From positions 84,506,001 to 84,570,000 of the forward strand of contig OX597814.1 of NCBI GenBank assembly GCA_951406725.2: 64,000 nucleotides of DNA, given 5' to 3'. Below, in pieces: positions 11,627 to 12,074 of this stretch (position 1 is the first letter of the stretch; every line of letters begins with the position of its first letter). Under the pieces are notes generated by a model, which was given only the letters and a program-made list of their open reading frames with translations, was not told the DNA's origin and did no database searches. Source of the DNA: Octopus vulgaris (Eukaryota). Made by a program: the position numbers and the translations under genes.

Positions 11627-12074
11627 TCCAGTACAGGATCACAAGCAGTGCATCAAAATACTTGAAGTATTCCATGAAAAATGCTGATTCTGATGATCAT
11701 ACACAATGTAGATGTTCACTAAACCAAGGCAGACACTCAGCAGTAAATGTTAGCAGTAGACAGAAACACAAGGCCACAACAAGTATGTAGTCAGAGATGC
11801 CACCAGGTCCAAGAATTGAGGTGTTGCGACCTCCTACATGACCAGAAAGTCAAGGGGTGGGTTATAACAGAATCTACCCGGCTCGACCATGGTCAAGAGG
11901 AGAGTGCAATGTGTGACAGCCCTCGCCTCTGCCGGACCAGATGACAACAGTGAATGGCGATACGCACGCCAGTAAGTCTGAGAGCAGAGACAAAAAGTCA
12001 TCAGTCTTACTAGCATACTTCGCTATGCACTTCAAGCATAGAGTACCCTGGTCGTCAGATGCCGAAGTACAACC
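11627..12074 (-). other. DGCR8: Putative non-coding 5'UTR exon of DGCR8
   Basis: GC-richer, non-repetitive island in AT-rich DNA. Acceptor ttgttattcag| before 12074 and donor GGA|GTAAGT after 11627. Contains long hairpins. Confidence 0.65.

Follow-up and report, generated by a model that had tools for sequence, protein, structure and literature searches.

In Octopus vulgaris, an RNA hairpin of 86 nucleotides (hairpin B) lies within a spliced non-coding exon that is conserved and runs on the strand encoding DGCR8, the gene known in flies as pasha. Hairpin B is a real RNA hairpin. By analogy with mammals and flies, it probably serves octopus DGCR8 as a feedback (helper) hairpin, cut by Drosha in the 5' UTR. 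A second element, just inside the coding region of the same gene, resembles the mammalian hairpin mir-1306 and has counterparts in four distant invertebrate DGCR8 loci. Throughout, the window means the whole stretch of DNA analysed, 64,000 nucleotides (64 kb) of contig OX597814.1. Coordinates are window positions unless a locus is named, and the features are collected in the table.

The gene had been called DGCR8 in an initial annotation made from the letters alone, and this we can now state with confidence. The minus strand encodes an exon for the WW and heme-binding region that matches human DGCR8 (1090-948, E 2e-17). The first coding exon contributes 186 residues that are 100% identical to Octopus bimaculoides DGCR8 (XP_014780090.1), 83% identical to the protein of Argonauta hians and 63% identical to a third protein. 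All three of the cephalopod-type DGCR8 proteins compared begin at the AUG at 2195, so everything upstream of this codon is 5' UTR. The promoter is likely to be the CpG-rich stretch at about 20500-25000.

Several other features of the window deserve a mention in their own right. The CpG-rich stretch upstream of DGCR8 contains a strong unbranched hairpin (23860-23955, minus strand; -34.1 kcal/mol, z -5.67, about 31 bp with an 8-nt loop), possibly part of the first exon or a small mobile element, for which neither an Rfam family nor a UG/CNNC register was found and which occurs once in the window. Between this promoter-like region and the hairpin exon runs a degenerate TA/TG microsatellite of about 520 nt (20190-20710), and the intron upstream of the hairpin exon holds a near-perfect palindrome (16149-16632), MITE- or foldback-like, with 198-nt arms that are 94% complementary and an inner 29-nt perfect inverted repeat. 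On the plus strand are a 113-nt Rfam tRNA match that ARAGORN missed and that is probably intron-containing (24665-24777), a tRNA-Gln(CTG) gene (44785-44858) and the start of an SMC/RAD50-type ATPase gene (48946-49140; Pfam AAA_23, SMC_N).

Hairpin B lies in a 448-nt exon, 9.3 kb upstream of the DGCR8 AUG exon. Four of the 24 listed sequencing runs (X6, X9, X21 and X22) were aligned to positions 880-12350. Run X6, which comes from another organism, is spliced RNA: one contig crosses from 1637 to 1090, and the coding contig starts exactly at the acceptor at 2372. Contig 6 of this run aligns to 11627-12075, beginning exactly at the donor and carrying 29 unaligned letters beyond the acceptor, with a depth of 16.7 compared with 13.1 on the coding contig, and it is this contig that shows 11627-12075 to be an exon. 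The contigs themselves are strandless; the strand of the exon follows from the AG and GT at the contig ends, which are present only on the minus strand. The earlier proposal of a 5' UTR exon read in the sense orientation is supported, though what ties it to the AUG exon is indirect: among the 15 joints listed, out of 21, none runs from 11627 to 2372, so we infer that the exon is spliced into the DGCR8 mRNA.

The remaining runs add detail on the leader. Run X9 contains a joint from 2372 to 10373, which is alternative splicing in the DGCR8 leader, along with an unspliced contig (11356-12023) that runs through the donor at a depth of 11.8, against 83 on the AUG exon. In X22, a raw RNA run of which about 6% was read, zero reads fall on the 448-nt exon and the AUG exon is covered 2-9x, the depth declining from about 9 to 2 along its length. 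Skipping of the exon, 3' bias or cleavage of the transcript would all, and equally well, give the low exon depth of X22 and X9. Run X21 (organism H) leaves the exon uncovered and barely touches the coding exons, which makes it uninformative on wider conservation.

Two other identities for 11627-12074 were tried and rejected. A coding exon is incompatible with the stops in all three minus-strand frames, with the in-frame stop that stands 9 nt 5' of the AUG and with the three DGCR8 proteins, which begin at that codon. A repeat or transposon origin fares no better, the exon being single copy within the 64-kb window and drawing no X22 or X21 reads, whereas repeat pieces drew many. As for distant relatives of the exon, a pattern search of metagenomes gave 0 matches, blastn against 44 invertebrate DGCR8 loci found none alike (best E 0.94) and Rfam returned nothing at gathering score, with three weak non-miRNA matches (E 3.7-8.1).

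Table 1. Features of the DGCR8 locus in the octopus window, and related hairpins in other invertebrate loci (locus coordinates in the last eight rows).
Feature	Position	Strand	Remarks
DGCR8 exon, WW/heme-binding region	948..1090	-	protein match to human DGCR8
First coding exon of DGCR8	1637..2372	-	AUG 2195-2193; in-frame stop 9 nt 5' of AUG
mir-1306-like hairpin	2040..2117	-	coding region, ~80 nt after AUG; z -4.8
Optional non-coding exon, 75 nt	10373..10447	-	donor joined to AUG exon in one X9 contig; acceptor from sequence
Non-coding exon, 448 nt	11627..12074	-	acceptor AG 12076-12075, donor GT 11626-11625, both canonical
Rod C (weak)	11689..11795	-	broken by many internal loops; no better than chance (z -1.41)
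Extended rod around hairpin B	11798..11946	-	21 further pairs below 11x2 internal loop; z -2.69
CNNC	11818..11821	-	+17 of predicted 3' cut; predicted paired in lower helix, p about 0.9
Hairpin B	11824..11909	-	25 core pairs + 4 weak apical pairs; 34-nt arm span; 17-nt loop
Predicted Drosha product, 57 nt	11838..11894	-	from register of basal UG + CNNC
Basal UG	11907..11908	-	-14/-13 of predicted 5' cut
Hairpin A	11949..12031	-	21 pairs p >= 0.91, incl. 13-bp unbroken helix
mir-1306-like hairpin, L023	1595-1669		distant invertebrate DGCR8 locus
mir-1306-like hairpin, L027	3853-3922		distant invertebrate DGCR8 locus
mir-1306-like hairpin, L031	8571-8657		distant invertebrate DGCR8 locus
mir-1306-like hairpin, L039	885-977		distant invertebrate DGCR8 locus
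Upstream second hairpin, L023	1243-1328		expected helper position
Upstream second hairpin, L027	3686-3767		expected helper position
Upstream second hairpin, L031	8414-8493		expected helper position
Upstream second hairpin, L039	779-839		expected helper position

All five helices named in the initial annotation are present at 11909-11824 on the minus strand, one of them (GTCGAG/CTTGAC) including a G-U pair, and folding returns the 86-nt stem-loop with a minimum free energy of -33.2 kcal/mol (z -3.85); none of 200 shuffles does as well. In the ensemble of the whole exon, 24 of the hairpin B pairs have probabilities of 0.78-1.0 and the outermost pair 0.52. The apical GGGT/ACCC helix reaches only about 0.5, and were it to open, the loop would be 27 nt. 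The z-score depends on where the borders are drawn: -4.6 when tight, -3.9 with 10-nt flanks, -2.3 with 15 and -0.9 with 30, while the region 11800-11930 scores -0.60. GC-matched 86-nt windows on the minus strand fold as well in 4 of 416 cases; a loose filter for pri-miRNA shape admits 37 hairpins when both strands of the window are counted. The plus strand folds equally here (-35.4, z -4.31), so the strand of the hairpin is set by the splice sites and the gene, not by the fold. Nor does the stem stop at 86 nt. Below an 11x2 internal loop, 11946-11921 pairs with 11798-11821 (p 0.75-1.0) in a lower helix of 21 pairs, so that hairpin B forms the upper part of a longer rod, some 150 nt in all. Hairpin A, the neighbor that had been placed about 40 nt away, does end about 40 nt upstream of hairpin B. 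It has a z-score of -4.6 when tight and -2.8 at 101 nt, with a UG at -14 of a predicted cut at 12020 and a CNNC at +15.

How good a Microprocessor substrate would hairpin B be? We judged this by motif definitions taken from PMC11701709. The size fits: where a stem of about 33-35 bp with a loop of at least 10 nt is expected, hairpin B has an arm span of 34 nt and a 17-nt loop, provided that the weak apical helix forms. A UG at -14 and a CNNC at +17, within the expected +16 to +18, also fall in one register, with the cut at 11894/11838. Measuring 13 nt from the basal junction instead gives an alternative register, with a product of 61-63 nt from 11896/11897 and a cut 2-3 nt further out. The UG and CNNC would coincide by chance about 12% of the time over six registers, and do so in 3 of the 37 shape-passing hairpins; hairpin B alone among the 37 adds to them, in the same register, a C at -5 together with a purine at +5. 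Those letters (C-5 and G+5) belong to the mGHG/CmR motif, of which the -6/+4 mismatch is absent from hairpin B. The apical UGU is also out of place, at +26. Single-stranded basal flanks are absent from the predicted fold, where the 11x2 loop is followed by the 21 predicted pairs, and the predicted pairing of the CNNC argues against free access to it. Hairpin B has no Rfam miRNA family at E <= 10 and no match to R1 or R2, our models of the mir-1306-like hairpin. The description of the hairpin as pri-miRNA-like thus survives in part. Hairpin B agrees with a Microprocessor substrate in size and in two of the four recognition motifs, and lacks mGHG, an apical UGU in place and free flanks. Taken together, the missing mGHG, the UGU at +26 and the paired CNNC and flanks make it a plausible but imperfect substrate.

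The exon has barely changed between close relatives. Over 449 gap-free positions, X6 differs from the window sequence at 2. The coding exons of the same run differ at 25 of 736 and 4 of 139 positions (pooled, 29 of 875; p 4e-4 against the exon), the three listed intron pieces at 45 of 884 (p 2e-6), and the most conserved of those pieces alone at 8 of 346 (p 0.024). Run X9 has 11 differences over 669 bases, which, with a word share of 0.75, corresponds in simulation to roughly 2 in the exon part. Among the runs listed, 20 rows from 12 studies match words of the exon under seven organism labels; the word share is 1.00 for four labels and 0.75-0.93 for the other three. For label B the share is 1.00 even though its run X22 has fixed differences at 8 or more sites of the AUG exon; the labels may, however, be loose. 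None of the matching rows is on record as RNA, a point given no weight as evidence. Within the compass of one gene and close relatives, the comparisons support strong constraint on the sequence of the whole exon rather than of hairpin B alone.

The second strand of the argument concerns the coding region. A scan of metagenome contigs for the WW exon yielded the 44 invertebrate DGCR8 loci, and four of them (L023, L027, L031 and L039) share with octopus a mir-1306-like hairpin near the DGCR8 start. A model built from these four loci only, with octopus left out, recovers the octopus positions 2038-2120 on the minus strand with 42.1 bits (E 6e-9); its next, unrelated match in the 64 kb scores 17.7 bits. 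In the five-sequence alignment, 92.5% of cells pair, against at most 45% in slid controls. Both-sided changes are found at 5 of 24 pairs (7 cells, a number reached by 1 of 500 shuffles), on a structure derived from the same alignment. The hairpin is coding in octopus and L023 and non-coding in L027, L031 and L039, where stops interrupt the equivalent frame, which argues that it is the RNA itself that is conserved.

The likeness to mir-1306 itself is graded. For L023, Rfam mir-1306 is the top match (29.5 bits, E 3.6e-4). The octopus element scores 12-14 bits with mir-1306 (RF01014), below the gathering score of 70 bits, and higher with mir-367 (21-24 bits). In an ungapped comparison by eye, 37 of its 56 arm positions agree with the Rfam mir-1306 consensus, including an 11-nt run; the loops outside this comparison measure 13, 16 and 19 nt, lengths that preserve the reading frame. 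L027 has no mir-1306 match in the Rfam scan, which covered octopus, L023 and L027. The WW exon of L023 is nearer to octopus than to human, and in layout this locus is mammalian, with a 5' UTR hairpin, the AUG and then the mir-1306-like hairpin in one exon. An ESM Atlas search with that exon gave no match. Homology of the octopus coding-region hairpin with vertebrate mir-1306 is, on these sequence comparisons, likely but not proven.

Beyond its training set of the four known loci, model R1 detected no new mir-1306-like hairpin, either in all 44 loci with default filters or in 18 loci with filters off. Five loci (L003, L004, L008, L016 and L030) have DNA upstream of the AUG and no R1 match; many others lack such DNA. 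In all four hairpin-bearing loci the mir-1306-like hairpin is preceded, at a distance of 50-271 nt, by another predicted hairpin that is unrelated to it, with z-scores of about -2.9 to -6.5. Predicted hairpins are frequent in these loci (2-11 each), so this adjacency is partly a matter of chance. As a separate observation, two related loci without the mir-1306-like hairpin in their available DNA share a 76-nt non-coding segment upstream of DGCR8 that is 72% alike (L003 2501-2576 and L016 501-575). In the octopus AUG exon itself, a weak stem (2270-2358, minus strand) was considered as a helper and set aside: it folds, yet adding flanks brings its z-score to about 0, the level of shuffled sequence.

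We can now put the pieces together in the form we favor. Drosha-DGCR8 would bind the hairpin B stem of about 33 bp and cut the transcript near 11894-11897 and 11835-11838. The cut would separate the cap from the coding part, giving less DGCR8 when Microprocessor is plentiful (negative feedback). Hairpin B, together with hairpin A, would fill the role that mir-3618 plays in mammals, that of 5' UTR helper, and the mir-1306 counterpart would be the element at 2040-2117, separate from the helpers. From hairpin B to the coding-region hairpin is about 455 nt in spliced RNA (530 with the optional exon) and 9.7 kb in the gene. The exon's inclusion in the DGCR8 mRNA, the Drosha cut, its sites and the helper effect are all things that we infer.

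Three other explanations have to be weighed against a helper hairpin, and the most serious keeps the structure and dispenses with Drosha. The exon would be a structured regulatory cassette, with hairpin B as one of its structural parts, whose upstream AUGs and three rods would dampen translation or bring about decay of transcripts that include it, or whose rods would be ADAR substrates. Upstream AUGs do occur in the exon, eight in all, of which two fall in stem B and one starts a 60-codon frame; constraint extends over the full 448 nt, and the leader is alternatively spliced, as the X9 joint shows. Conservation is raised around cephalopod editing sites, and octopus editing has been reported to fall mostly in introns and UTR hairpins. 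Yet with so few changes of a synonymous type, constraint on an upstream peptide alone is an awkward explanation; no editing site was callable from the run alignments; and a cassette leaves unexplained why a stem of pri-miRNA size, with UG and CNNC in register, should occur in precisely that gene for which feedback of this kind is known. We consider a cleavage-free cassette unlikely, if worth keeping in mind.

Could hairpin B instead be an incidental fold, given borders after the fact in a GC-richer stretch, with the function residing in hairpin A or in other motifs of the exon? The fading of the z-score with 30-nt flanks, the better fold of the opposite strand, the 37 similar shapes in 64 kb and the cleaner helix of hairpin A all lean that way. 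Against this are the core pairs, which hold at p >= 0.78 in the whole-exon ensemble, the rarity of equally good folds among GC-matched windows, and the near-absence of change across the entire exon in X6 (at most 2), by which hairpin B is constrained too; an accident of folding therefore strikes us as improbable. The last explanation makes hairpin B an octopus-specific microRNA gene acting in trans from the DGCR8 leader, its mature product accounting for the conservation. The predicted product of 57-63 nt is the size of a pre-miRNA, and coleoids are reported to have gained many new miRNA families. However, hairpin B is without an Rfam miRNA family, its loop and flanks are conserved about as much as its arms, and the DGCR8 hairpins of mammals and flies, by published accounts, give little mature miRNA. 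We regard a trans-acting microRNA as very improbable.

A Drosha-cut helper would have several consequences. The split over two exons offers a direct test of splicing-dependent cluster assistance. The loop that governs microRNA dose has been demonstrated in vertebrates and in flies; an octopus case would carry it into the molluscs, and there into a lineage whose microRNA repertoire has expanded greatly. The octopus apparently retains an ancient recipient hairpin and seems to carry lineage-specific helpers on a separate exon. More tentatively, one could imagine a feedback built everywhere on a single mir-1306-like hairpin of bilaterian ancestry, to which each lineage has added its own helpers, those of the octopus (A and B) being housed on their own ultraconserved exon 9.7 kb upstream. 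Cluster assistance and the strength of feedback would then depend on splicing, with inclusion of the exon arming the loop and skipping releasing DGCR8; we rate this scheme less likely than not. A shared coding-region hairpin would make the core element of the loop far older than catalogued: Supplementary Table 1 of MirGeneDB 3.0 assigns MIR-1306 to Gnathostomata. In the literature covered, which took in few subscription papers, we found no paper on mollusc DGCR8 hairpins or on invertebrate mir-1306. The main text of PMC9699675 contains no mention of DGCR8, Pasha or Drosha, and four terms looked for in the text of its supplement are absent there too, though an octopus miRNA annotation of A or B may already exist.

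How, then, does the octopus compare with the systems already described? As a pri-miRNA measured against the canonical form in MirGeneDB, hairpin B has the stem span (about 34 nt), the loop of more than 10 nt and the UG and CNNC in one register; it differs in the mGHG mismatch, the placement of the apical UGU and the paired flanks, and it is known as a predicted fold. The better of the two mammalian substrates is mir-3618, located in the 5' UTR; it assists the cutting of mir-1306, found some 120 nt past the AUG, and DGCR8 is lowered by both hairpins (PMC13288104 and 10.1101/2025.09.09.675111). The two flank the AUG within one exon (exon 2), and it is mir-1306, in the coding region, that is the mammalian hairpin B. 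Octopus shares with mammals the gene, the sense-strand exonic hairpins of pri-miRNA size 5' of the AUG and a further hairpin, close behind the AUG, with a likeness to the Rfam mir-1306 consensus. It differs in having three candidate hairpins rather than two, with hairpin B on a separate non-coding exon 9.3 kb upstream, hairpin A beside it, and no Rfam miRNA match in the sequence of hairpin B. The initial annotation had likened its two hairpins in one exon to the mammalian arrangement. That mapping does not hold: octopus A and B share an exon that is non-coding throughout, and what probably corresponds in sequence to mammalian hairpin B is a different hairpin, the one at 2040-2117. The closer parallel is the fly. 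In Drosophila, Drosha cuts a pair of hairpins in the pasha 5' UTR (dme_422 and dme_474; Mohammed et al., 10.1101/125997), and the two-hairpin layout is described in 10.1101/2025.09.09.675111 as shared between systems while the hairpins themselves are not. Like the fly, octopus carries two neighboring hairpins within the 5' UTR of its DGCR8 orthologue; Drosha cleavage has been shown for the fly pair, whereas the octopus pair is known from sequence and fold, and to that pair the octopus adds a hairpin in the coding region.
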